From: Waddliaceae bacterium
GTDB lineage: Bacteria; Chlamydiota; Chlamydiia; Chlamydiales; SLFE01
Length of the DNA: 64,000 bases
Reading direction: 5' to 3'
Assembly (NCBI GenBank): GCA_963783885.1
Contig: CAWAPJ010000019.1
Coordinates: forward strand, 19,824 to 83,823
The position numbers were made by a program, and so were the translations under genes. The notes under the pieces are model-generated. The model saw only the letters and a list, made by a program, of their open reading frames with translations. It had not been told where the DNA came from and made no database searches. Of the stretch, positions 9,692 to 49,247 are shown piece by piece. The first letter of the stretch is position 1, and every line of letters starts with the position of its first letter.

Positions 9692-10561
9692 ATGGAAAAA
9701 ATACCGAGAAGCTTTGGAACCCACGATGGCAGTTTTCATGCCGATGAGGTGACAGCATGCACGCTTCTTTTGATGCACGACCTGATCGACCGCGATAAGA
9801 TTTTCCGGACGAGGGATCCCGATACACTCGAATCCTGCGAATTTGTGTGCGATGTCGGAGGCGTTTATGATCCTGAGCGGAAACTTTTCGATCATCATCA
9901 GGTGGAGTATCAGGGCGAGCTTAGCAGCGCGGGAATGATCCTCAAATATTTGAAGGACGAGCGCTATTTGGATGAGTTTACCTACGAGCATTTGAACCGC
10001 TCCATCATTCATGGGATTGATCTTCATGATAATGGAAAAGAGCCTCAAGTTTATGGCTATTGCTCTGTTTCCCACGTGGTGGCTAATTTCAATCCCATTG
10101 AGCATGGGAGCTCAGCGGAAGAGCAAAACCGCTGTTTTCATAAGGCTTTGGATTTTGTCTCCAACCTTCTTCGCCGCATGGTTGACAGGATTCACTACAT
10201 TCAATCGTGCAAAGATATTGTCGAAGATAAAATGCGGGAAGGGCAGCGGTGCCTCATTTTTGAAAAGAGCGTTCCCTGGCTGGAGCTTTTTTTTGAACTG
10301 GGAGGGGAAAATCATCCGGCGATTTTTATCGTGATGCCGTCGGGACGGCATTGGAAGCTTCGCGGCGTTCCCCCAAGTTATGATGACAGGATGAACGTTC
10401 GGGTTCCTCTTCCCGAAGCGTGGGCAGGACTTCATGACGACGACCTCAAGGAAGTGACAAAAATATCCGGCGCAATTTTTTGCCATAAGGGGCGGTTTAT
10501 CTCGGTTTGGGAAACGAAAGAGGATGCGTTAAAAGCGCTGGAACTAGTCATTAAGGAGTGA
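9692..10561 (+). CDS. MYG1/UPF0160 family metal-dependent hydrolase
   Basis: The N-terminal signature is FGTHDGSFHADEV..., with DHHQ further on. The length is about 290 aa. Confidence 0.8.
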   Translation: MEKIPRSFGTHDGSFHADEVTACTLLLMHDLIDRDKIFRTRDPDTLESCEFVCDVGGVYDPERKLFDHHQVEYQGELSSAGMILKYLKDERYLDEFTYEHLNRSIIHGIDLHDNGKEPQVYGYCSVSHVVANFNPIEHGSSAEEQNRCFHKALDFVSNLLRRMVDRIHYIQSCKDIVEDKMREGQRCLIFEKSVPWLELFFELGGENHPAIFIVMPSGRHWKLRGVPPSYDDRMNVRVPLPEAWAGLHDDDLKEVTKISGAIFCHKGRFISVWETKEDALKALELVIKE

Positions 10562-10563
10562 GT

Positions 10564-10905
10564 ATGGCAGAAGAAACGATCTTCGGAAAAATTATCAATA
10601 AAGAGGCTTCGGCCGATATCGTTTTCGAAAACGATAGAATTCTTGCAATCAAAGATATCGCTCCCAAAGCGCCGGTTCATTTGTTGATCATGCCGAAAAA
10701 ACAGTTCAAGGATATTCAGACTGTCCCTGAAAATGAAATGCCTCTGGTGTGCGAGTGTTTTACGGTAGCGCAGAAGCTGGCTAAAGAATTCGGCGTCGAA
10801 GGGGGCTACAGGATATTGACCAACTGCGGCCCGAGCGCCGGACAATCGGTCCGCCATCTCCATTTTCATCTTTTGGGCGGCAGGCCTTTGGGGGTGATGG
10901 GATGA
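10564..10905 (+). CDS. HIT family (histidine triad) protein
   Basis: It carries the histidine-triad motif VRHLHFHLLGG and has the HinT-like N-terminus TIFGKII. Confidence 0.9.
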   Translation: MAEETIFGKIINKEASADIVFENDRILAIKDIAPKAPVHLLIMPKKQFKDIQTVPENEMPLVCECFTVAQKLAKEFGVEGGYRILTNCGPSAGQSVRHLHFHLLGGRPLGVMG

Positions 10906-11483
10906 GGCAGTGTTTTTTTATGGAAAGGAGCCGAACGGGATGTCTTCTAATCGATGTCCAGGAAAAGCTGTTCCCCTTGGTCGAACACCCCAATGAAGTT
11001 CTGTCCCACTTAGTCAAGCTGATCAAAGGCTTTAAAAAACTGTCTGTTCCGATTGTTGTCTCCGAACAGTATCCGCAGGGGATGGGAAGGACGATCTCGG
11101 AGCTGAAGAGCGTCCTCCCCGAAGGACAGAAATATTGGGAAAAAACCACTTTTGCCTGCGGCAGGGATGCGGCGCTTCGCGACTATCTTTTCAGCTTCGA
11201 TATCGATACCTGGATTTTGGCGGGAATTGAAGCGCATGTGTGCGTGATGCAGACGGCCAAAGACCTTGTGCTCGCGGGCAAGCATGTTGTTGTTATCAAC
11301 GATGCCATCTCTTCTAGGTCGATCTATGATTTCTCGACAGCGATTGCCGAGATGAAAGACTGGGCCAGGGTGACGAGCACGGAGTCGGCGCTGTTTGAGT
11401 TGATCGGCGACGCGGGCACCCCCGAGTTTAAAAGCTGCCTAGAGCTTTTCAAAAGCGAGCCTCCAAATTGCTGTTGTTCATAA
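10902..11483 (+). CDS. Isochorismatase-family cysteine hydrolase
   Basis: It shows LLIDVQEKLF near the N-terminus and AGIEAHVCVMQTAKDL (catalytic Cys context). Its start overlaps the HIT stop by 4 nt. Confidence 0.8.
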   Translation: MRQCFFMERSRTGCLLIDVQEKLFPLVEHPNEVLSHLVKLIKGFKKLSVPIVVSEQYPQGMGRTISELKSVLPEGQKYWEKTTFACGRDAALRDYLFSFDIDTWILAGIEAHVCVMQTAKDLVLAGKHVVVINDAISSRSIYDFSTAIAEMKDWARVTSTESALFELIGDAGTPEFKSCLELFKSEPPNCCCS

Positions 11484-13195
11484 GAATCACTTTTTGCTTA
11501 TCTGTTTGGTTTGGGTTGTCTGCCAGCGATGAGTGGGTCTTGAAACGGGTCAAGTCCCATCTTCTGATTGGAGATGTCGACGCGGCCAAAGCGGAAGCAT
11601 CTAATGGAGCGGTTCAATACCCTGCGTCCCGAAAAGTCAAGGAACTGGAAATCGAAACGTTGGCAAAGGCGGGGGACGAAAAGAGGATGATGGCCTGCTG
11701 GAGGGACTATGTCCGGCAATACCCTGACGCTTTTGAAAAGACCGATCTGCTCGAAAGCATGGCTTGGGGAGTGATCGACAAAGGGTTTTGGGCGGCGTCG
11801 CCCATTACCAGAGCCGTCGCGCTTGTTGCCGCGAACCTCTCCGGCTCCGTGAAAGGGATCAAGCTTCTGGAAAAAGGGATTCAAGACACCAATTCCGCTG
11901 TCAGAGGTCTCGCGCTTGAACTTTCGATGAAAAATCGCGACTCCATACTCCAGGATCGGGTTCTCGAGGTCCTTGAAAAAGATAGAGCCTGGAATGCCAG
12001 AATGGCTGCCCTCAAGGCGGCAGGCGGGATGCGAATCCAAAGGGCTCGGGAAGCTTTGCGAAAAATTATCTCCAGCAATCAGTCAACCGATGAAGAGAGG
12101 GCCCTTGCTGTTCAGTCTCTTGTCATGATTCTCGATGCATCCAGCCGCCGCGATATCGCCAGGCTGGCAAAAAGCCGCCGGGTGGGGCTTCGACTTTTAG
12201 CCTGTGAAATTGTTGCAGTCTTCAAGCAGCATGAAGATCTCGATTTGATTGTGCCTCTCTTTTCCGACCACTCGGCTCAAATTCGCAAAGCCGCTTTGCA
12301 GGTGGCGGGAATTTTACGGGATCCGGAAGTCAATGGTAAGGATATATCCCATACCATTTTGCCTATGCTGGGGGATCCCGATAAGGAAGTGGCAATCATT
12401 GCCTCGTGGGTACTCATGCTTCACAAACATCCCGAAGGTCAGAGAGCCATGAGCGTCTTTCTGCGAGACGACTCCAGAGAGATTCGTTGTTTTGCGGCAG
12501 CGGTTTTGAGATCTGCGGGAAAATATGGAAGGCCTCTGATCGAGCGCGCTTTTGAAGAAAGTTTTGATCCCTATGTAAGGCTTAACCTCGCTATCGGCCT
12601 CATCGGCCAGCGCATCCATTGTCCCGAAGCCTGCAGAGAGATTTACCATGAGCTGATGACTAGCGGCGACAGGTGGATGTGGCAGGAGGAGGGGGTTTTT
12701 CGTTCTGTGGCGCCGAGCCTTGTGCGGCATCGTGAAGATATACCGCAATTTCCCGAAGTGGTGAATCAGCTCGTCCGCCTCGAGCTCCTGCAGCTCCTCG
12801 CTTTCATGAAGTATCCCGGAACTGAGAGCGCCATGAAGCAGTTTTTGGAAGAAAGGACCTTTGGAATCACCGGAGTTGTCGCCGCTTTGATGCTTTCCGA
12901 AGGGGAGGAAGAGTCGCTCGATATGATTCGAAAGCTTTTAGACGACCCCGATGAAAAGATACGAGCGCAGGCCGCTTTGATTCTGGCCCTTTGGGGCCGG
13001 GAAGAGAATGTCATCAAAGAGCTCGAAACAATCTACACTTCCGGCACCCGCCACGTGAAAGAAAAAGTATTGGAGGGAATGGGCAGTATCGGGTCGCACC
13101 ACTCGCTCCCTTTTTTAACCGAAAGGCTATCTGAACCCCACCAGCACCTTCGCATGATCGCCGCCGTCGCCATAATCCAATGCGTCAATCATTAG
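11468..13195 (+). CDS. HEAT-repeat (PBS-lyase-type) protein with an N-terminal signal-like segment
   Basis: It has repeated alpha-helical units with D..VR.AA..AL patterns, for example DTNSAVRGLALEL, DHSAQIRKAALQVAG, DPDKEVAIIASWVL and DPDEKIRAQAALILA. Confidence 0.75.
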   Translation: MLLFIRITFCLSVWFGLSASDEWVLKRVKSHLLIGDVDAAKAEASNGAVQYPASRKVKELEIETLAKAGDEKRMMACWRDYVRQYPDAFEKTDLLESMAWGVIDKGFWAASPITRAVALVAANLSGSVKGIKLLEKGIQDTNSAVRGLALELSMKNRDSILQDRVLEVLEKDRAWNARMAALKAAGGMRIQRAREALRKIISSNQSTDEERALAVQSLVMILDASSRRDIARLAKSRRVGLRLLACEIVAVFKQHEDLDLIVPLFSDHSAQIRKAALQVAGILRDPEVNGKDISHTILPMLGDPDKEVAIIASWVLMLHKHPEGQRAMSVFLRDDSREIRCFAAAVLRSAGKYGRPLIERAFEESFDPYVRLNLAIGLIGQRIHCPEACREIYHELMTSGDRWMWQEEGVFRSVAPSLVRHREDIPQFPEVVNQLVRLELLQLLAFMKYPGTESAMKQFLEERTFGITGVVAALMLSEGEEESLDMIRKLLDDPDEKIRAQAALILALWGREENVIKELETIYTSGTRHVKEKVLEGMGSIGSHHSLPFLTERLSEPHQHLRMIAAVAIIQCVNH

Positions 13196-13200
13196 GATCA
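13141..13200. repeat. Direct repeat copy A (3' end of the HEAT gene including its stop); partner at 15497..15553
   Basis: Hand alignment to 15497..15553 gives 52 of 60 positions identical with one 3-nt gap. The two copies translate as HLRMIAAVAIIQCVNH* and HLRMIAAAIIQCVNH*. Confidence 0.8.
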
Positions 13201-13443
13201 ATCAGTCATTCCTGTGAAAAAAATTATTTAATTTAATTATCATAAATTCAAATACTTATATTTGATATGCTCAATTTTCATTAATAGCCTTTCGTAAAGT
13301 GTAAAACGCGGAGACGCAGGGTCGCGGGGTCGCGGATTTTGTTTTTTGTTTTCATCCCTCTCTCCTTAGTCCCCGCGACCCAGCGTCTCCGCGTTAAAAT
13401 TTTTCAAATAATAAATTCACGGGAATGGTTGAGGATCAATCAG
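13194..13443. mobile_element. MITE-like palindromic element (non-coding, about 226 bp between 12-bp direct repeats)
   Basis: AGGATCAATCAG occurs at 13194..13205 and 13432..13443. The terminal inverted repeats are CATTCCTGTGAA (13207..13218) and TTCACGGGAATG (13416..13427). An internal 25-bp inverted repeat lies at 13305..13329 and 13371..13395 and is 24/25 complementary. Confidence 0.45.
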
Positions 13444-13522
13444 CATCTAATCGAGATAACTTTTTCAAAATAATGCTTTGACTAAAATTATGGATAAAAT
13501 ATACATTAATAGTTTATAACTA

Positions 13523-14170
13523 ATGCGAATATTATCCGTTATGGCTAGAAAAAAATCTCAACAGATTCGCGATCAAGCTCTTGAAATATTTCGATTGCAC
13601 GGAGGTGTACTGAAAACTTCAGAAGCGCTTGCATTAGGCATACATCCACGTATTCTCTATGAGCTTAGAGACTTGGGTTATCTGGAACAAATGATGAAAG
13701 GGATCTATGCTCTGCCGGGCTTACCTGGGATTGACCAACCGGACTATGTAGCAATTTCAAAAAAGGTTCCAAAAGGTGTCATTTGTTTAATATCTGCTCT
13801 TTATTTTCATGAACTGACAGTGCAGATTCCTCGATGGGTAGATGTTGCCATTCGACAGTCTTATCATCCCCCTGAAATTTCATATCCTCCAGTTCAATTT
13901 CATTGGTTTTCGAGTAAGGTTTTTGAAACTGGAGTTGAATGCCACGATATGCATGGTATAAAAGTTAAAATCTATTCACAGGAAAAATCCATTGTAGACT
14001 GCTTTCGGCTGCGCGGAAAAGTGGGTGTTGATGTCGCAGTAGAAGCGCTCAAAGTTTACTGGAGGAAGGAGAAGGCTGACATGGCTTTGCTTGAGAACCT
14101 CGCTAAAGAATCACGAGTGCTTAAGATCATGACTCCCTACATAGAGAGTATTATTCATGACCAGTCCTAA
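13523..14170 (+). CDS. abiEi: AbiEi-family antitoxin / transcriptional regulator (type IV TA system)
   Basis: The N-terminal AbiEi-like wHTH reads IRDQALEIFRLHGGVLKTSEALALGIHPRILYELRDLGYLEQMMKGIYALPG. It overlaps the downstream AbiEii gene by 14 nt. Confidence 0.8.
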   Translation: MRILSVMARKKSQQIRDQALEIFRLHGGVLKTSEALALGIHPRILYELRDLGYLEQMMKGIYALPGLPGIDQPDYVAISKKVPKGVICLISALYFHELTVQIPRWVDVAIRQSYHPPEISYPPVQFHWFSSKVFETGVECHDMHGIKVKIYSQEKSIVDCFRLRGKVGVDVAVEALKVYWRKEKADMALLENLAKESRVLKIMTPYIESIIHDQS

Positions 14171-15410
14171 AGCCGTAAACATCGCAGCATCTATAAAAGG
14201 TCGCCTGCTAAATTTAGCTCGGACAACAAATCGACCATATCAGGAACTGCTGCAATATTTTGGGATGGAGCGTTTTCTTTACCGACTTAGTCGAAGCTCT
14301 CACTCTAAACGTTTTATTCTAAAAGGAGCTTTACTCTTCCATGTATGGAAAATTCAGGAGTCCAGAGCAACCAGAGATATTGATGTGTTGGCAATGGCAG
14401 ATAATTCTAAAGAGAATATAGAAAGTCTTATTAGGGATATTTGTGATCTCGAAGTTGATTGCTTAGATGGAATCGTCTTTGACTCAAATTCATTATCAAT
14501 CAAAATCATGCAAAATCAAAGGGAATATGAAGGTATTCGTGTGTGTTTTCAAGGATATTTAGAGAATACGAAAATTTCCATGCAGCTAGATATAGGATTT
14601 GGAGATAGGATAACCCCCGCACCCGTAGAGATCACTTATCCGACTTTATTGGATTTACCCATGCCCAAGCTCTGTGGTTATCCTGTTGAGACTGTCATTG
14701 CAGAAAAACTTCATACCATGGTGGAGAAGGGGATGCTCAACAGTCGCGTCAAGGATTATCACGATGTTTGGGTTTTGTTAAGACAAGGCCATTATGATGG
14801 AGAGGTGTTAGAACGAGCTGTGGAGAGAACCTTCAGTCAAAGGGGTATCAAGTTCGAAAGGACAGAGTTGTTTCAGATAATTAAGCGTTATGGTTTTGCC
14901 CCCGACCGTCAATCACTTTGGGATCAGTATATCCGAAAAGGAGCATATATGTCTGTTTCTCGAAATCTGAGTCAGGTTTGTGCCGATATATCCACTACGC
15001 TTCAATTTCTACTTGCAGAATCAATGAAATCTCCTGTTTCAAATAAAATCGGAATTATCCTTGGCCAGCGAAATTTGAAAGGAAGAAACCTGTTAGAGAA
15101 AGTGAATCAGTTAATCATATCGGGTGCAGATGTAAACGACACATCAAATAATGGTCATCTTCCACTGAATATTGCGATTAGTCGAGGGTGTAGGGAGGTG
15201 GCATTTCTCTTGCTTGAGGCCGGAGCAGATTTTCAAGTTCAGGACAATTCAGGTCTGAATGCTTTTGAATTGGCTTTGAATTGCGCTAGGTATGATGTGG
15301 CTTATGATATTTATAAGCGGGGTTTTCCTTATCAGCCAAGACATTTCAATCAGCGACTAAAGATATCTCACCAAAACCAATATGAGTTTGATTTACGTTA
15401 TTTTTCTTAG
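14157..15410 (+). CDS. abiEii: AbiEii/AbiGii-family nucleotidyltransferase toxin (DUF1814) fused to C-terminal ankyrin repeats
   Basis: The N-terminus is typical of AbiEii: SIKGRLLNLARTTNRPYQELLQYFGMERFLYRLSRSSHSKRFILKGALL...TRDIDVL. Residues about 308-388 form ANK repeats (GADVNDTSNNGHLPLNIAISRGCREVAFLLLEAGADFQVQDNSGLNAFELAL). Confidence 0.8.
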   Translation: MTSPKAVNIAASIKGRLLNLARTTNRPYQELLQYFGMERFLYRLSRSSHSKRFILKGALLFHVWKIQESRATRDIDVLAMADNSKENIESLIRDICDLEVDCLDGIVFDSNSLSIKIMQNQREYEGIRVCFQGYLENTKISMQLDIGFGDRITPAPVEITYPTLLDLPMPKLCGYPVETVIAEKLHTMVEKGMLNSRVKDYHDVWVLLRQGHYDGEVLERAVERTFSQRGIKFERTELFQIIKRYGFAPDRQSLWDQYIRKGAYMSVSRNLSQVCADISTTLQFLLAESMKSPVSNKIGIILGQRNLKGRNLLEKVNQLIISGADVNDTSNNGHLPLNIAISRGCREVAFLLLEAGADFQVQDNSGLNAFELALNCARYDVAYDIYKRGFPYQPRHFNQRLKISHQNQYEFDLRYFS

Positions 15411-15473
15411 AACTGAATGAGGGCTTTTTTAGCAAACCTTGAATGGAACGGCAAATATTAAGCCTATCGATTT

Positions 15474-16328
15474 CTAACCGATAGGCTTGAGTTCTACTAG
15501 CATCTTCGGATGATCGCCGCCGCCATTATCCAATGCGTCAATCATTAGAATCACCTCATTAATCACATCTTCGTCGAAAAGGTAAGACTGATGGCCGACA
15601 TCGGAATAGAGGCGAAAGTGAATCAGATCGTCAGGAGTTTTATAAAAGGCGTTTTGGTACGGTTTGATCACCTCGTCGACAATGCTTCCAAAACAATAGT
15701 ATTCGGTTTTAGGGTTGTAGGTCATATGGGCGGTCAATTTTTGTAAGAAGGGACTTCGGTAGCTCATCTGTCTTGAAGCCTTGCCGAAACCGAGGTGGGC
15801 AAGGCGCGTCCCCTGAAGCGGCGCCCCGATCGTGATGACAGCTTTGACCGTCCCCTCATCGGCATAGTGCTGTGTGCAGTAAGCGGCTACGATCCCTCCC
15901 ATGGAATGTCCGATCAGGATGACTTGGCTTTGTCCTGTCTGCTCGAGAATATAGCGGATAACCGAGGCGATCTCTTTTGCCGAATAGCGGATATCCCCGG
16001 AGGAGTTGGTTAGCCTGGGAACGTAAACAGGGCCGAGGCCGACCTCTTGCAGAGCATTGCGGAACGGTTTCCATCCTGAAATATCGTGCATGTAGCCGTG
16101 AATCAAAATAATGGGAATTTCTCCTTCCATGTCGGTAGGAAATTCCGAATGTTGATCTATCGGGTCAAAGTAGCGATGTGTCCAGCATTTGATAATCGAG
16201 GGAATGTCATGACTGAGTTCACTGACGACTTTCTGAAAATAAGGAGCAGAATTTCCCTCAGTCGAAAAAGCCAGGAGAATTACAAACAAGGCAATGTATC
16301 GAGAATACCCAGACACCCAATCACCCAA
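15474..16328 (-). CDS. Alpha/beta-hydrolase, lipase-like (secreted; signal or TM segment at the N-terminus)
   Basis: It has the nucleophile elbow LIGHSMGG, IPIILIHGYMHD upstream, and the hydrophobic N-terminus YIALFVILLAFSTEG. Confidence 0.75.
   Translation of the reverse strand: MGDWVSGYSRYIALFVILLAFSTEGNSAPYFQKVVSELSHDIPSIIKCWTHRYFDPIDQHSEFPTDMEGEIPIILIHGYMHDISGWKPFRNALQEVGLGPVYVPRLTNSSGDIRYSAKEIASVIRYILEQTGQSQVILIGHSMGGIVAAYCTQHYADEGTVKAVITIGAPLQGTRLAHLGFGKASRQMSYRSPFLQKLTAHMTYNPKTEYYCFGSIVDEVIKPYQNAFYKTPDDLIHFRLYSDVGHQSYLFDEDVINEVILMIDALDNGGGDHPKMLVELKPIG
15497..15553. repeat. Direct repeat copy B; also encodes the C-terminus of the minus-strand lipase-like gene
   Basis: See 13141..13200. 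The minus strand here reads ...VILMIDALDNGGGDHPKML as part of ORF 15474..16328. Confidence 0.8.
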
Positions 16329-17125
16329 TATTTGACCTCTTGACTGAATAATAGGCAGAGATGTCCCTTTCCCTCAATTTTTTTCTGATGAGGGTAGTCC
16401 TCACCGAATGGAAAAGAAGAGGTCCGGGGAGTGATCAGCGGGTCTTTTATCGCGCCGGCAAAGTAATACTTAACGCGTTGATTATTCTTCATTTGGGTTA
16501 CAAGCTGGCTTAAGAATTCGGAGTCTGGCCTCATCTGTTGTATCGATTTGACAAATCCGAATGTGTGGGCAACCTCTGTTCCCTCAAACGGGCTTCCGAG
16601 CGCGACGACATTCTTGACGGTGAATTTCTTTGATTGATAATTCTCTGCTAAACAGGCCGCGACCAGCCCGCCCATTGAGTGGGCGACAAGATTAATCTCA
16701 ATAGTCTGATTGTAAAGGGTATAACAATCTTTTATTTTTCTTTTCACTTCTCGAGCCGATTTTTCAATATCTTGAAGCGAATTTGAGATATTGACCCTGA
16801 GGATGCTGCTTTTCGGTTTAAAATGTCTGTCATAATCCTTAAATGCGGTTTCATTGTGCAAAAAACCGTGGATGAAGACAGTGAGGACTTTCTTATTGGT
16901 TGGATGAAAATAATCGCCACCCGTTCCCAGAAGCAGCCTCTTAATAGAGCGCCATGTGCATCTGGCTAAATGGACTTCGGTTTTGAAAAATTGGATGAGA
17001 ATAGAGATGATTTGCTGTATTTTTTTTACAACGCGCAAACTCTTATGACCAATGTTTTTAAGAGTTTCTTTCCCCTGGTGGGAGATGCCCTGGAAAAAAA
17101 GTTTCGTCTCAAATTTGACAGCCAT
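16280..17125 (-). CDS. Alpha/beta-hydrolase, lipase-like (paralog 2)
   Basis: It shows LTVFIHGFLHNETAF and LVAHSMGGLVAA, and is clearly paralogous to 17161..17922. Confidence 0.75.
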   Translation of the reverse strand: MAVKFETKLFFQGISHQGKETLKNIGHKSLRVVKKIQQIISILIQFFKTEVHLARCTWRSIKRLLLGTGGDYFHPTNKKVLTVFIHGFLHNETAFKDYDRHFKPKSSILRVNISNSLQDIEKSAREVKRKIKDCYTLYNQTIEINLVAHSMGGLVAACLAENYQSKKFTVKNVVALGSPFEGTEVAHTFGFVKSIQQMRPDSEFLSQLVTQMKNNQRVKYYFAGAIKDPLITPRTSSFPFGEDYPHQKKIEGKGHLCLLFSQEVKYWVIGCLGILDTLPCL

Positions 17126-17160
17126 AGATAGCTGTCATTATAAGACAAAATGTTTTTTTG

Positions 17161-17922
17161 CTAAACTTGCAGAATGCCGAGAGATTGCATAACCCAGCTT
17201 TCGATCTCTTCGCTGTATAGAAGGTCCCCATGGCCGATTCCCTCGAACTTCTTCTGATGAATATAAAGATCTCCGAATGGAAAAGATGAGTTTAAGGGGT
17301 CGATGACGGGATCCGCCTCCGAACCGGCAAAATGGTAGTTGATCTCTTTATAGTTTTTCATGCTTTCGACTAGACCCTTAAGGAAAGGGGAGCCGGGCTT
17401 CATTTGCTGCACGGCTTTTCCGAAAGTGAAGTATTTTGCGATGCTGGTACCTTGAAACGGGCTTCCGATAGCCACGACATTTCTTACAGGGAAATCTGCC
17501 CACTCGGCCACTGCCGCCGCGATAAGACCTCCCAGCGAATGTCCGACCAGATGCACTTCAGCAGGATCTTCGGAATAGCGCTTGATTTTTCCGGCTACTT
17601 CCCTTGCCGATATTTCAATATCCTGAAATGAATTGGAGATGTTGACCCTCAGAATGCTGCTTTTTGAGTGAAGCAAAGGGTCGTATCTATGAAAGGCTGT
17701 TTCATTGTGCATGAGTCCGTGGATGAAGACAGTCAGCCTATTCGTGCTGCTCTGATAATAGTAGTCCCCGCTAGTTCCTTTGATTATTCTCTCAAGACTG
17801 CGGCGTGAGCTTTTCACAAGATTGGTTTCGGTATTGAGAAACCGGGAGATCATAGTCATCAGCTGCTGGAGGTCGCCGACAAATTTCCGATTCGATGGCC
17901 TTTCTTGTGCTTGAATGCTCAT
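17161..17922 (-). CDS. Alpha/beta-hydrolase, lipase-like (paralog 3)
   Basis: It shows LTVFIHGLMHNETAF and LVGHSLGGLIAA. SSILRVNISNSFQDIEISAREV aligns with SSILRVNISNSLQDIEKSAREV in paralog 2. Confidence 0.75.
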   Translation of the reverse strand: MSIQAQERPSNRKFVGDLQQLMTMISRFLNTETNLVKSSRRSLERIIKGTSGDYYYQSSTNRLTVFIHGLMHNETAFHRYDPLLHSKSSILRVNISNSFQDIEISAREVAGKIKRYSEDPAEVHLVGHSLGGLIAAAVAEWADFPVRNVVAIGSPFQGTSIAKYFTFGKAVQQMKPGSPFLKGLVESMKNYKEINYHFAGSEADPVIDPLNSSFPFGDLYIHQKKFEGIGHGDLLYSEEIESWVMQSLGILQV

Positions 17923-17987
17923 AATGGGAATATTTTATTTTTTTATAAAAAACTCCCCAGATGTTAGATGGGGAGTTCTAAATTAAA

Positions 17988-18662
17988 TTAGTAGGTATAT
18001 TTGCCTGTTTTAATAGTTATATGGGAATTATCGCATTCCTTTTCTATATGTTTGTATATATTCAGATCTTTAACTTTATCTTCTTGAATGTCATTGTTAT
18101 CTGGATATTCAATTATAACTTCTTTTAAAACTTCAAACTTGTCATTGATATCATTGATTAATTGTTGATCGTAATCTTCAGTTTCTGATTCTTCATTATT
18201 ATAGAGATCATAAGAAATTCTTATTTTTATGGTGTTTGTTTCTTTTTCCCATCGATATATAAAAGAATCGGTAGTATCATCCAGAAGAGTGCCTGAATTC
18301 ACTTTCCTGATTAATGCATTTGCTTCTTTTTTGCTTAAGGATAAATCTTTATTATTAATCGTAACCCGGATAGATTTTTTTAACAGGGGGGTAAAGGAAA
18401 ATATTTTTCCTATTAAGACACGCAAAAATTTAGGGACCAATTTACTATTTTTACTATATACATAAGTAGAACCCAGGAGTCGGGAATATTCTTTATGTGC
18501 TGTAATGTCTAAATCTGCATCAAATGGAAGAAATATGTTCTGGACTGCTTTGTCTATTTTTTTCTGCCAGCTTTTCTGTTTTTTTGAATTGCTCTCAAGC
18601 AGGCTTCTATTATGAGTAATCAAATTGATGCTGTTTGTTAATTTTGAATTATCAATTTTCAT
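17988..18662 (-). CDS. Hypothetical protein, member of a local two-gene paralog family
   Basis: MKIDNSKLTNSINLITHNRSLLESNSKK...VPKFLRVLIGKIFSFTPLLKKSIRVTINNKDLSLSKKEANALIRKV aligns with the N-terminal half of 18844..19602. The segment is AT-rich. Confidence 0.6.
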   Translation of the reverse strand: MKIDNSKLTNSINLITHNRSLLESNSKKQKSWQKKIDKAVQNIFLPFDADLDITAHKEYSRLLGSTYVYSKNSKLVPKFLRVLIGKIFSFTPLLKKSIRVTINNKDLSLSKKEANALIRKVNSGTLLDDTTDSFIYRWEKETNTIKIRISYDLYNNEESETEDYDQQLINDINDKFEVLKEVIIEYPDNNDIQEDKVKDLNIYKHIEKECDNSHITIKTGKYTY

Positions 18663-18705
18663 ATTATTACCTCTTATTTGTTAAGTAATAATTTTACTAT
18701 TCTTA

Positions 18706-18724
18706 TGTTAAGATTGTATAAATT
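18706..18724 (-). promoter_or_regulatory. Conserved upstream box (-10-like) of paralog 17988..18662
   Basis: The minus strand reads AATTTATACAATCTTAACA, 44-62 nt upstream of the ATG. A near-identical box lies at the same distance upstream of the other paralog. Confidence 0.35.
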
Positions 18725-18754
18725 CTCAGTTAGTTTAGTGTAAATCTCTGAAAT

Positions 18755-18789
18755 GGGGCAAAAACGGGGTTTTGGGGCTTTTGAAGGGG
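18755..18789 (+). other. G-quadruplex-type motif (four GGGG runs)
   Basis: The sequence is GGGGcaaaaacGGGGttttGGGGcttttgaaGGGG, with loops of 7, 4 and 8 nt, in an otherwise AT-rich intergenic region. Confidence 0.3.
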
Positions 18790-18843
18790 CTAGTCCGCTT
18801 CTCTGCTCCGGTTGTCCCCTTCTAATGAAGTAAAAATCTCGGG

Positions 18844-19602
18844 TTATAGGGAAAAATGGAAACGTTTCCGAGGTTCCTTTTTTGCAGGAACTTTTATTTC
18901 AATGTTTATATTGTGGTCTTTGCATGTCTCTACTACATGGTTGTAGAATCGTAAATTTCCTCTATTTCTGATTTCACAATCTCCGAGATCTTCGCATTTA
19001 ATTATAATTTTTTCTAGGCTTTCTAAATTTTTCGAAATATCTTCTATTGGATGTTGATCATAATTTTCATCAGTAGGCTCACAAAGTATAACTAGGTCGT
19101 CTGAAATATTTATTGTCATTATTGTATTTTCATCGTTCATTTCAAATTTAATATATTCGATCTGAATATTTTTGCTAACTCCAAGATCTTTATTGGTTGG
19201 TGGTTTGGGCAAATTGTTATGTTGAGAATGATCATTTGTATTAAGTTCATAAGTTTTTTTAACTAATGACATTGCTTCTTTTTTGCTTAACAAGATGTGC
19301 TCATCGTTAATCGTAATATCAAAAGATTTTTTTAGCAAAAATATGGCAGAAAATATTTTTCCCATTGCAACGCGGAAAATTTTAGGGATAATTTTGCTAT
19401 CTCTACTCCAACGATAACTGAATGCCAGGGGTCTGGAATATTTTTTCTCAACTTCAATTTTAGGGTCAGTAGGAAGATTTGATCCTTCAAGGACGTCATT
19501 AATTTTTTTCTGCCAGTTTTTTTGCGAATTATTCTTAAGCAGGTTTCTATTTTGCAGAATATTATTTAAACTCTGTTGTAATGTTTTACTATCTATCTTC
19601 AT
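18844..19602 (-). CDS. Hypothetical protein, paralog of 17988..18662
   Basis: It reads MKIDSKTLQQSLNNILQNRNLLKNNSQK...IPKIFRVAMGKIFSAIFLLKKSFDITINDEHILLSKKEAMSLVKKT. Confidence 0.6.
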   Translation of the reverse strand: MKIDSKTLQQSLNNILQNRNLLKNNSQKNWQKKINDVLEGSNLPTDPKIEVEKKYSRPLAFSYRWSRDSKIIPKIFRVAMGKIFSAIFLLKKSFDITINDEHILLSKKEAMSLVKKTYELNTNDHSQHNNLPKPPTNKDLGVSKNIQIEYIKFEMNDENTIMTINISDDLVILCEPTDENYDQHPIEDISKNLESLEKIIIKCEDLGDCEIRNRGNLRFYNHVVETCKDHNINIEIKVPAKKEPRKRFHFSL

Positions 19603-38128: not shown

Positions 38129-38179
38129 CTTGTATGGCGCCTTCTAATGCTGAGCGGCATGGCTATGGACGTTAGCTGA
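38129..38179 (+). pseudogene. Remnant copy of the glgA 3' region
   Basis: It translates as LVWRLLMLSGMAMDVS*, against glgA 36917..36967 LMWRKLMLNGMAMDFSW. It contains the exact 16-mer CGGCATGGCTATGGAC. Confidence 0.6.
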
Positions 38180-38180
38180 G

Positions 38181-38307
38181 GTTTAGGTAGCAATCAGGGT
38201 CTAAGCCTCGATTATCGGCAAGGGATTACCCTTGCCTTCAAATCGAGTCTACGCATCTGAATCCAACGAAAGACTTTAACAACAAGTTTAGGTAGCAATC
38301 AGGGTCT
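38181..38307. repeat. Repeat-family copy 1: 22-bp GTTTAGGTAGCAATCAGGGTCT at both ends in direct orientation, with a central hairpin
   Basis: The 22-mer lies at 38181..38202 and 38286..38307. The centre holds the GGCAAGGG-ATTA-CCCTTGCC hairpin with an extended stem CTCGATT/AATCGAG. Positions 38201..38307 are identical to 47921..48027. Confidence 0.85.
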
Positions 38308-38348
38308 TAGATCTTCTGGCGTCTTATATAAAGCAATTCGCAAGACCT

Positions 38349-47920: not shown

Positions 47921-48027
47921 CTAAGCCTCGATTATCGGCAAGGGATTACCCTTGCCTTCAAATCGAGTCTACGCATCTGAATCCAACGAAAGACTTTAAC
48001 AACAAGTTTAGGTAGCAATCAGGGTCT
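47921..48027. repeat. Repeat-family copy 2 (107 bp identical to 38201..38307)
   Basis: CTAAGCCTCGATTATCGGCAAGGGATTACCCTTGCCTTCAAATCGAGTCTACGCATCTGAATCCAACGAAAGACTTTAACAACAAGTTTAGGTAGCAATCAGGGTCT is identical at both loci by eye. Confidence 0.9.
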
Positions 48028-49088: not shown

Positions 49089-49247
49089 GGCCCTGATTGC
49101 TACCTAAACCTCAGCTAGAGCTTACACGAGTACACCATCTACTGCCTGTAGCGACTTGGCAAGGGATTACCCTTGCCGTCGACGCTACAGTTGTATCTGG
49201 CGCACTCGTGTAAGCTCTAGCTGAGGTTTAGGTAGCAATCAGGGTCT
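49089..49247. repeat. Repeat-family copy 3: 159-bp near-perfect palindrome
   Basis: The left arm 49091..49131 is the exact reverse complement of the right arm 49204..49244, and includes the 22-mer terminus. The centre holds CTGTAGCG..GGCAAGGG-ATTA-CCCTTGCC..CGCTACAG. Confidence 0.9.

Follow-up and report, generated by a model that had tools for sequence, protein, structure and literature searches.

How can foreign DNA enter a place where two convergent genes share their 3' ends and leave both of them complete? This question is raised by a locus from an uncultured chlamydia of the Waddliaceae (assembly GCA_963783885.1, contig CAWAPJ010000019.1), of which we analysed a stretch of 64,000 nucleotides (nt), called here the window and numbered from its first letter. 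Within it an AbiEi-AbiEii gene pair, as part of a small islet, separates a gene for a HEAT-repeat protein from a gene for a lipase-like hydrolase, and on each side of the islet stands a copy of one segment that holds the 3' ends of both genes. We consider it probable that this arrangement arose by a recombinase-independent insertion that carried an AbiE cassette and made a long duplication of its target. The features on which the argument turns are given below.

11468..13195, plus strand: HEAT-repeat protein gene, 575 amino acids (aa); Pfam HEAT_2, 1e-28
13112..13200: first copy of the target (copy A), 89 nt, serving the HEAT gene only
13194..13443: possible nested insertion of about 226 nt resembling a MITE (miniature inverted-repeat transposable element), just downstream of the HEAT stop codon
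13478..13507, plus strand: promoter-like site of the abiE operon (TTGACT, 18 nt, TACATT)
13541..14170, plus strand: abiEi, antitoxin/regulator, 209 aa; Pfam AbiEi_4, 5e-8; PADLOC AbiEi, 2.6e-63
14157..15410, plus strand: abiEii, nucleotidyltransferase toxin with a C-terminal ankyrin extension, 417 aa; Pfam AbiEii, 4.8e-36; Ank_2, 4e-7
15460..15488: right-junction hairpin, free energy (dG) about -19 kcal/mol
15471..15553: second copy of the target (copy B), 83 nt, serving the hydrolase gene only
15474..16328, minus strand: alpha/beta-hydrolase (lipase-like) gene, 284 aa; Pfam Abhydrolase_1, 1.3e-11, with PGAP1 and Lipase_2/3

The duplicated segment and its single copy in relatives

The original prediction had proposed a repeat of ~57-60 bp, formed by the shared 3' end of two convergent genes, which a BLASTN comparison of the window with itself should reveal. 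This comparison does find the two segments to be significantly similar, and with blastn-short positions 13140-13200 match 15496-15553 with 86.9% identity over 61 columns (E ~1e-13 against the whole window). Smith-Waterman alignment and standard blastn extend the repeat to 13112-13200 and 15471-15553, where 80.9% of the 89 aligned columns are identical, two 3-nt gaps being counted among them (E = 2e-15). The place of the repeat at the two gene ends and its coordinates were therefore right, and so was the similarity of the segments, while their extent had been drawn ~30 nt too short on the left. No third copy was found in the window by blastn or Smith-Waterman. The sequence adjoining either end of the repeat, aligned locally with the HEAT and hydrolase genes, was no more similar than shuffles (p = 0.33-0.92), and on these grounds we rejected a longer duplication that had decayed beyond the 89 nt.

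Copy A holds the last 28 codons of the HEAT gene and its TAG stop codon (13193-13195), and copy B, read on the minus strand, holds the last 26 codons of the hydrolase gene and its stop codon (15474-15476). The repeat, which at 89 and 83 nt is well beyond 30 bp, spans from 3 nt beyond one stop codon to 5 nt beyond the other. It is protein-coding on both strands and not the 3' end of a transfer RNA (tRNA) or transfer-messenger RNA (tmRNA), and neither kind of gene lies nearby.

The closest available relative, L005, is a Waddliaceae metagenome-assembled genome (CAVYRW010000004.1) whose HEAT protein is 92% identical and whose DNA is about 87-90% identical. Window positions 9000-13198 align to L005 3533-7731 and positions 15471-19000 to L005 7645-11169, with ~87 nt of L005 matching both copies (L005 7645-7733 aligns to each). 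In L005 the HEAT gene (6001-7728, plus strand) and the hydrolase gene (7648-8496, minus strand, 282 aa) converge and overlap by 81 nt, and the target is present in a single copy, just the empty site that had been expected, with the HEAT gene running directly into the hydrolase gene. The overlap is likewise 81 nt in L001/L006 (79% HEAT identity) and in L012 (43%), and is 48 nt in L002-L004/L007 (65%; from gene calls and hand translation); L001 and L002 are also empty at the site. These empty sites support the earlier claim that the islet was inserted where two convergent genes overlapped. None of 80 genome loci with a HEAT orthologue carries an AbiE gene, and the five distinct relatives with the hydrolase gene beside the HEAT gene show no un-overlapped intermediate. 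Because all relatives are empty, parsimony points to a single gain in the lineage of the window, into a gene pair that would already have overlapped in the ancestor.

Both genes are intact, as had been supposed: the HEAT protein has 575 aa in the window and in L005, and the hydrolase has 284 aa against 282 aa. HEAT orthologues at 92% (L005), 79% and 65% identity share a conserved C-terminus, ...HLRMIAA(A/V)(A/G)IIQCVNH. The hydrolase gene is the first of three tandem paralogous alpha/beta-hydrolase genes (15474-17922), which are followed on the same strand by two paralogous and very AT-rich open reading frames (17988-19602; guanine plus cytosine (GC) fraction 0.27-0.33). This region is shared with L005 at least to position 19000 of the window, where the comparison ends.

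Divergence of the two copies and the right junction

We reconstructed the duplicated ancestral sequence with L005 and L001 as outgroups. Copy A has four substitutions of its own, which in the HEAT frame amount to three synonymous changes and one A to V replacement, and which in the abandoned hydrolase frame are all non-synonymous and include a change of K to a stop codon. Copy B has six substitutions, five of them in its left third, together with two 3-nt deletions. Its abandoned HEAT frame has gone from ...SEPHQ to ...EFY followed by a stop, and its hydrolase frame is open, with both deletions in frame, and ends in ...DHPKMLVELKPIG before the stop, as against ...DHPKVLVRFRKPVG in L005. Each copy has decayed in the frame that it no longer serves. 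The only strongly diverged stretch, with 6 changes in ~33 nt, is the left third of copy B, which is free of HEAT constraint and encodes nothing but the poorly conserved tail of the hydrolase.

Both copies carry character states of the window's own lineage, and in the right part of copy A only 2 of ~41 positions have changed from the ancestral state. This pattern fits a duplication made in place and a subsequent division of the two coding roles; a copy brought in by the element would fit poorly, because the right part of copy A is not foreign in the way that the left part of copy B is. At four-fold degenerate sites the divergence between the window and L005 is 0.21-0.37, so that the diverged stretch could have been drifting through much of the interval since their separation. 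The event is not a very recent one, and the AbiE genes, still intact, have been maintained.

At the right junction the insert closes with 10 nt, AAGCCTATCG (15460-15469), that read as the reverse complement of host positions 15479-15488, which lie inside copy B. This inverted match is 10/10 today and 9/10 with the reconstructed ancestral host sequence, a score that random 10-mers from the islet reached in 55 of 20,000 draws (p ~0.003). No host base stands between either copy and the insert. The hairpin formed at this junction looks like the footprint of a fold-back or template switch, not like the product of a site-specific recombinase, and in general the junctions look to have been made by repair rather than by recombination at a dedicated site.

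Contents and relatives of the insert

Between the two copies lie 2270 nt with a GC fraction of 0.34-0.44, compared with 0.50-0.56 in the flanks, in agreement with the earlier description of an AT-richer 2.3 kb. The description of its contents was also accurate: the insert, far below 20 kb in size, holds a palindrome with 25-nt arms and the two abiE genes, AbiEi and AbiEii are its only Pfam or PADLOC matches, and neither the list of open reading frames nor Pfam gave a recombinase-like frame in its 2270 nt, as had been stated.

The Pfam and PADLOC matches identify the first protein as an AbiEi-family antitoxin with an N-terminal winged-helix domain, the PADLOC match spanning model positions 4-197 of 198. 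Its gene most likely starts at 13541; an alternative ATG at 13523 would give 215 aa, and an independent gene call in L087, the Logan assembly of run ERR11523667, gives 209 aa. The abiEii gene overlaps abiEi by 14 nt, and its product matches the PADLOC AbiEii model over its full length (7.9e-92) and the AbiGII chain of PDB 9hlo_B (1.3e-35). Among the fused relatives the columns G57, D74/D76, D145 and K199/D200/D203 are invariant. AbiE (AbiEi/AbiEii) was reportedly characterised by Dy et al. in 2014 as a type IV toxin-antitoxin and abortive-infection system. The window pair shares with such systems the bicistronic, overlapping abiEi-abiEii operon and the full-length model matches, and differs from them in that AbiEii has ~130 extra C-terminal residues with ankyrin repeats (residues about 310-390). 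On this evidence the module is apparently an ordinary and intact type IV toxin-antitoxin/abortive-infection pair. AbiEii-ankyrin fusions are rare: 5.8 billion proteins, when searched, yielded only a handful, and the ones that could be traced are chlamydial. In intracellular bacteria ankyrin repeats usually mean contact with eukaryotic host proteins, which makes the fusion an odd one for a phage-defence toxin.

Between the HEAT stop codon and the abiE promoter lies the possible nested insertion. An exact 12-nt direct repeat, AGGATCAATCAG, occurs at 13194-13205 and 13432-13443 (a 12-mer repeat was seen in 27 of 5000 shuffles), and inside it stand terminal inverted repeats, CATTCCTGTGAA (13207-13218) and TTCACGGGAATG (13416-13427), that match at 11/12 positions. 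Upstream of abiEi, in an AT-rich stretch, the piece contains a GC-rich hairpin (13305-13395) with 25-nt arms that are 96% complementary (dG -33 kcal/mol, z = -7.3). Further copies of the element were found neither in the window nor in 87 loci. Rfam gave no family at threshold for the hairpin, and we rejected a known RNA since the only matches were sub-threshold ones to microRNA precursors, typical of any long hairpin. The 226-nt piece may be a later, MITE-like insertion, and without it the primary insert measures about 2.03 kb. The hairpin element could act as a two-way terminator between the HEAT gene and abiE.

The nearest AbiEii-ankyrin proteins are only 58-59% identical to that of the window, and all that can be placed are chlamydial; apart from the window's own genome, the search of 5.8 billion proteins and a metagenome scan gave no relative of the cassette above 61% identity. 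At blastn sensitivity no DNA match was found in PLSDB or INPHARED, and a plasmid or phage origin of the islet was set aside. DNA homology to the cassette relatives begins at the abiE promoter, where window position 13478 aligns to L086 5323. The closest AbiE-ankyrin cassettes (L086, L088/L089, L090 and L085) lie in or beside tandem arrays anchored at the tmRNA gene, ssrA, in these intervals:

L086: 335-11671
L088: 3283-12336
L085: 5200-7330
L090: 7536-9230

In L085 and L086 the AbiE pair makes up a unit of 2128 bp that the two contigs share at 91% identity and that has a 36-nt repeat on both sides. L086 and L088 have seven to eight copies of this repeat, which separate small cassettes encoding, among others, helix-turn-helix/SocA-Panacea, cold-shock, Fic, AbiE and RhuM proteins. 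The arrays end at ssrA; in the 36-mer the tmRNA 3' end contributes its first 14 nt, which a constant arm, CGCGTTCAGAACTTTTGATTGG, follows; in L090 the AbiE-ankyrin pair directly adjoins the tmRNA gene. The arrangement is reminiscent of an integron-like platform with ssrA as its anchor. No integrase was found in the array loci over as much as 21 kb, and the cassette relatives presumably circulate as integrase-less units that depend for their movement on a recombinase whose gene lies elsewhere.

Genomic islets integrated at the 3' end of ssrA are said to have been described by Williams in 2003 as 'traffic at the tmRNA gene'. The closest AbiE-ankyrin cassettes share that location, in or near arrays that end at ssrA, but the window copy is not at ssrA, the 36-nt ssrA-derived site is absent from the window, and the repeat around the islet is host coding sequence. 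The HEAT/hydrolase target was also rejected as a pseudo-site of the ssrA type: it shares an 8-nt match, TTCTGAAC, with the 36-nt site, but the similarity is not significant (alignment p about 0.25). The original prediction had left the islet as either mobilised in trans or fossilised; relatives of the cassette do sit in site-specific arrays at ssrA, but the window copy lacks their site. The likely source of the insert is the stock of small cassettes for defence and toxin-antitoxin functions that Chlamydiae keep at the tmRNA gene.

Mode of insertion and its alternatives

A single course of events would account for these observations. A foreign AbiE cassette of 2.0-2.3 kb, whose relatives belong to the small cassettes stored at the tmRNA gene in environmental Chlamydiae, would have entered the Waddliaceae lineage of the window in one recombinase-independent event at a break inside the 81-nt HEAT/hydrolase overlap. 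The duplication would have taken in 89 nt, namely the whole overlap with margins of 3 and 5 nt, and because it covered the whole overlap neither gene would have lost any of its 3' end. With a shorter duplication one of the proteins would be truncated or altered, and much longer ones are presumably rarer, so that survivors of selection would be expected to just exceed the overlap. The dual-coding segment would later have been split, with copy A left under HEAT constraint only and copy B under hydrolase constraint only, and the 226-nt hairpin element was perhaps added later, just downstream of the HEAT stop codon. Addiction to AbiE plausibly guards the insert against loss by recombination between the 83-89-nt repeats. 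Of all this, the sequences show the insertion and the duplication, the target's single copy in relatives, the intactness of the genes and the decay of the unused frame in each copy, whereas one event only, a minimal length set by selection, an origin in repair or template switching and stabilisation by the toxin are inferred. An accident of repair or replication is favoured over a site-specific recombinase by the host-coding nature of the repeat, which is unrelated to the attachment (att) site of the cassette family, and by the 10-nt fold-back at the junction.

Several points weigh against this account. Such insertions have no more than a suggested mechanism even for restriction-modification systems, and nothing in the sequence shows the making of the 89-nt duplication; 64 kb of sequence leave room for a recombinase that acts in trans; the best relatives are only 58-59% identical in AbiEii, too distant for microhomology at the junctions to be read. 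Furthermore, few substitutions are specific to either copy (4 and 6), the hairpin at the junction may have arisen afterwards and been kept by selection, and protection of the insert by the toxin is reasoned, not observed.

The same locus could have been produced by site-specific integration in trans, in which a circular AbiE cassette bearing a copy of the overlap as its attP site was inserted by an integrase encoded elsewhere, the repeats being attL and attR and half of each copy having come with the element. Integrases classically leave direct repeats at the 3' ends of genes, copy B has diverged far more in its left part than elsewhere, and the cassette relatives that lie between 36-nt att-like sites in the ssrA arrays, integrase-less in up to 21 kb, indicate that integrase-less cassettes mobilised in trans exist in Chlamydiae. 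However, the target is unlike the att site of this cassette family, and no integrase is found in the islet or in the ~4 kb of L005-syntenic flank on each side. The right part of copy A should look foreign under such a scheme, yet only 2 of its ~41 positions differ, and the divergence in copy B falls exactly where constraint was lifted. An attP site would also have to mimic by chance the near-exact cover of both stop codons, and the fold-back footprint at the junction speaks against it as well. We consider integration in trans improbable.

Recombinase-independent insertion could also have come about in two steps, with a tandem duplication of ~89 nt followed later by illegitimate recombination of AbiE into the joint. 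Duplicating the whole overlap in tandem should be neutral for both proteins, and the end product could not be told from that of one event, but two rare events would be needed at the same nucleotide, no un-overlapped intermediate occurs in the five relatives, and no host bases were left between either copy and the insert, which makes this sequence of steps quite improbable. If instead the islet were ancestral, homologous recombination between the 83-89-nt direct repeats in the relatives would restore exactly the empty site that is observed. This would require several losses in place of one gain, all relatives from 92% to 43% HEAT identity being empty and the 81-nt overlap being conserved down to 43%; the composition of the insert is foreign and its nearest relatives sit at another locus, ssrA, and an ancestral islet is very improbable. 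That the source is a metagenome-assembled genome raises the matter of two contigs having been joined into a chimera at a sequence common to both. The copies differ at ~10% of positions and by two indels and could not have misled an assembler, the flanking genes are intact, and the independent assembly L087 spans both junctions at 99.9% identity; an artefact of this kind is scarcely credible.

Insertion with long target duplication, the mode we favour, has been described for restriction-modification systems (Nobusato et al. 2000, Gene 259:99; Furuta, Abe and Kobayashi 2010, NAR, PMC2853133). The criteria of the 2010 study are an insert below 20 kb with only the genes of the module, direct repeats above 30 bp, and a single copy of the repeat in an insert-free genome (PMC2853133), and one such insertion in H. 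influenzae has a 46-bp repeat that overlaps the 3' end of a gene (PMC2853133). The window islet agrees with these cases in being a small gene complex of selfish or defensive nature that has neither integrase nor transposase, in its repeats of more than 30 bp with one copy in an empty relative, in the uniqueness of the repeat in the sequence examined, and in a composition that differs from the host. It differs in its cargo, which is AbiE where those studies look for restriction-modification genes, in its host, an environmental chlamydia, and in a duplication of 89 nt, longer than the 46 bp of the integrase-free examples (PMC2853133 Table 2). The target is an 81-nt dual-coding overlap whose copies have since divided their coding roles. 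DNA breakage by the restriction enzyme has been suggested as the cause of the restriction-modification insertions, with the mechanism unsettled there too (PMC2853133), and AbiE has no counterpart of such breakage. The mode of insertion is the same as in those cases, with a different class of cargo, and in the literature we found no report of an insertion with long target duplication for a toxin-antitoxin pair.

Other kinds of mobile element resemble the islet less. A transposon or MITE also leaves direct target repeats at both ends, and the inner 226-nt piece, but not the islet as a whole, has the 12-nt duplication and 11/12 inverted ends of such elements. The target duplication of IS1630 is 19-26 bp and those of typical transposons are below 10 bp (as cited in PMC2853133); here the duplication is 89 nt, the islet has no transposase, and its ends are not inverted repeats, no inverted repeat pairing the two ends having been found. 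Unlike an integron cassette, the islet has no integrase, and the 60 nt between the abiEii stop codon and copy B contain no palindrome except the junction hairpin, which involves host sequence. It also differs from an att-flanked integrase islet, with no tyrosine or serine recombinase in the insert and with flanks that are syntenic with L005 for ~4 kb.

AbiE pairs between direct repeats also occur in unrelated metagenomes. We surveyed 80 generic AbiEii loci from a metagenome scan together with the chlamydial cassette loci, 65 of which were testable. An AbiEi-AbiEii pair stood alone between direct repeats of 17-90 nt in 15 of these 65 loci and in 4 of 245 control positions, the control being chlamydial loci from different genomes, as a control at the same loci had only 12 testable positions. 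The repeat-flanked loci include the following.

L117: 90-nt repeat
L098: 70-nt repeat, 531-600 and 2398-2467
L114: 64-nt repeat, 10-73 and 1707-1770
L129: 58-nt repeat, 1985-2042 and 4358-4415

The perfect 90-nt repeat around the AbiE pair in L117 (1-2384), a Syntrophales-like contig, is the 3' end of etfA, which is present once in L173 and L174, where etfA converges on the next gene (L173 3860-4069). L117 in addition contains a segment relocated over a distance of 1.3 kb, and in L172 (1422-4263) an AAA_14/DUF4143 ATPase gene, two small genes and a conserved 117-aa gene lie between copies of the same etfA end. We rejected L117 as a clean parallel, given that the relocated DNA and the different insert in L172 indicate a hotspot with an unclear mechanism. 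Recombinase-free insertion with duplication could be a general route for addiction modules, with AbiE enriched either through killing by the toxin or through a role of AbiEii at the junctions, though we think such generality unlikely. That the AbiEii nucleotidyltransferase takes part in making the junctions is the bolder variant, the other being the killing of cells that lose the insert by recombination between the repeats.

The window also contains a dispersed intergenic repeat, at 38173-38309, 47921-48027 and 49218-49247. It includes a 107-nt pair that is 100% identical and has an internal motif, GTTTAGGTAGCAATCAGGGTCT, and one copy lies ~200 nt upstream of a tRNA-Gln gene. The genes between the copies are housekeeping genes (UvrD, a Na:Ala symporter, thioredoxin and a CDP-alcohol phosphatidyltransferase).

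The locus offers a clean natural example of foreign DNA that enters an 81-base overlap of genes on opposite strands with neither gene damaged and with the empty site preserved in a close relative. If it arose in the way that we think probable, it would add a toxin-antitoxin/abortive-infection module to the cargoes of insertion with long target duplication, so far documented with restriction-modification systems, and to its hosts the environmental Chlamydiae, in which few routes of mobile DNA are known. In the duplicated dual-coding segment, each copy has quickly dropped the frame that it did not need, and this provides a small internal measure of the constraint that the overlap had placed on both genes.

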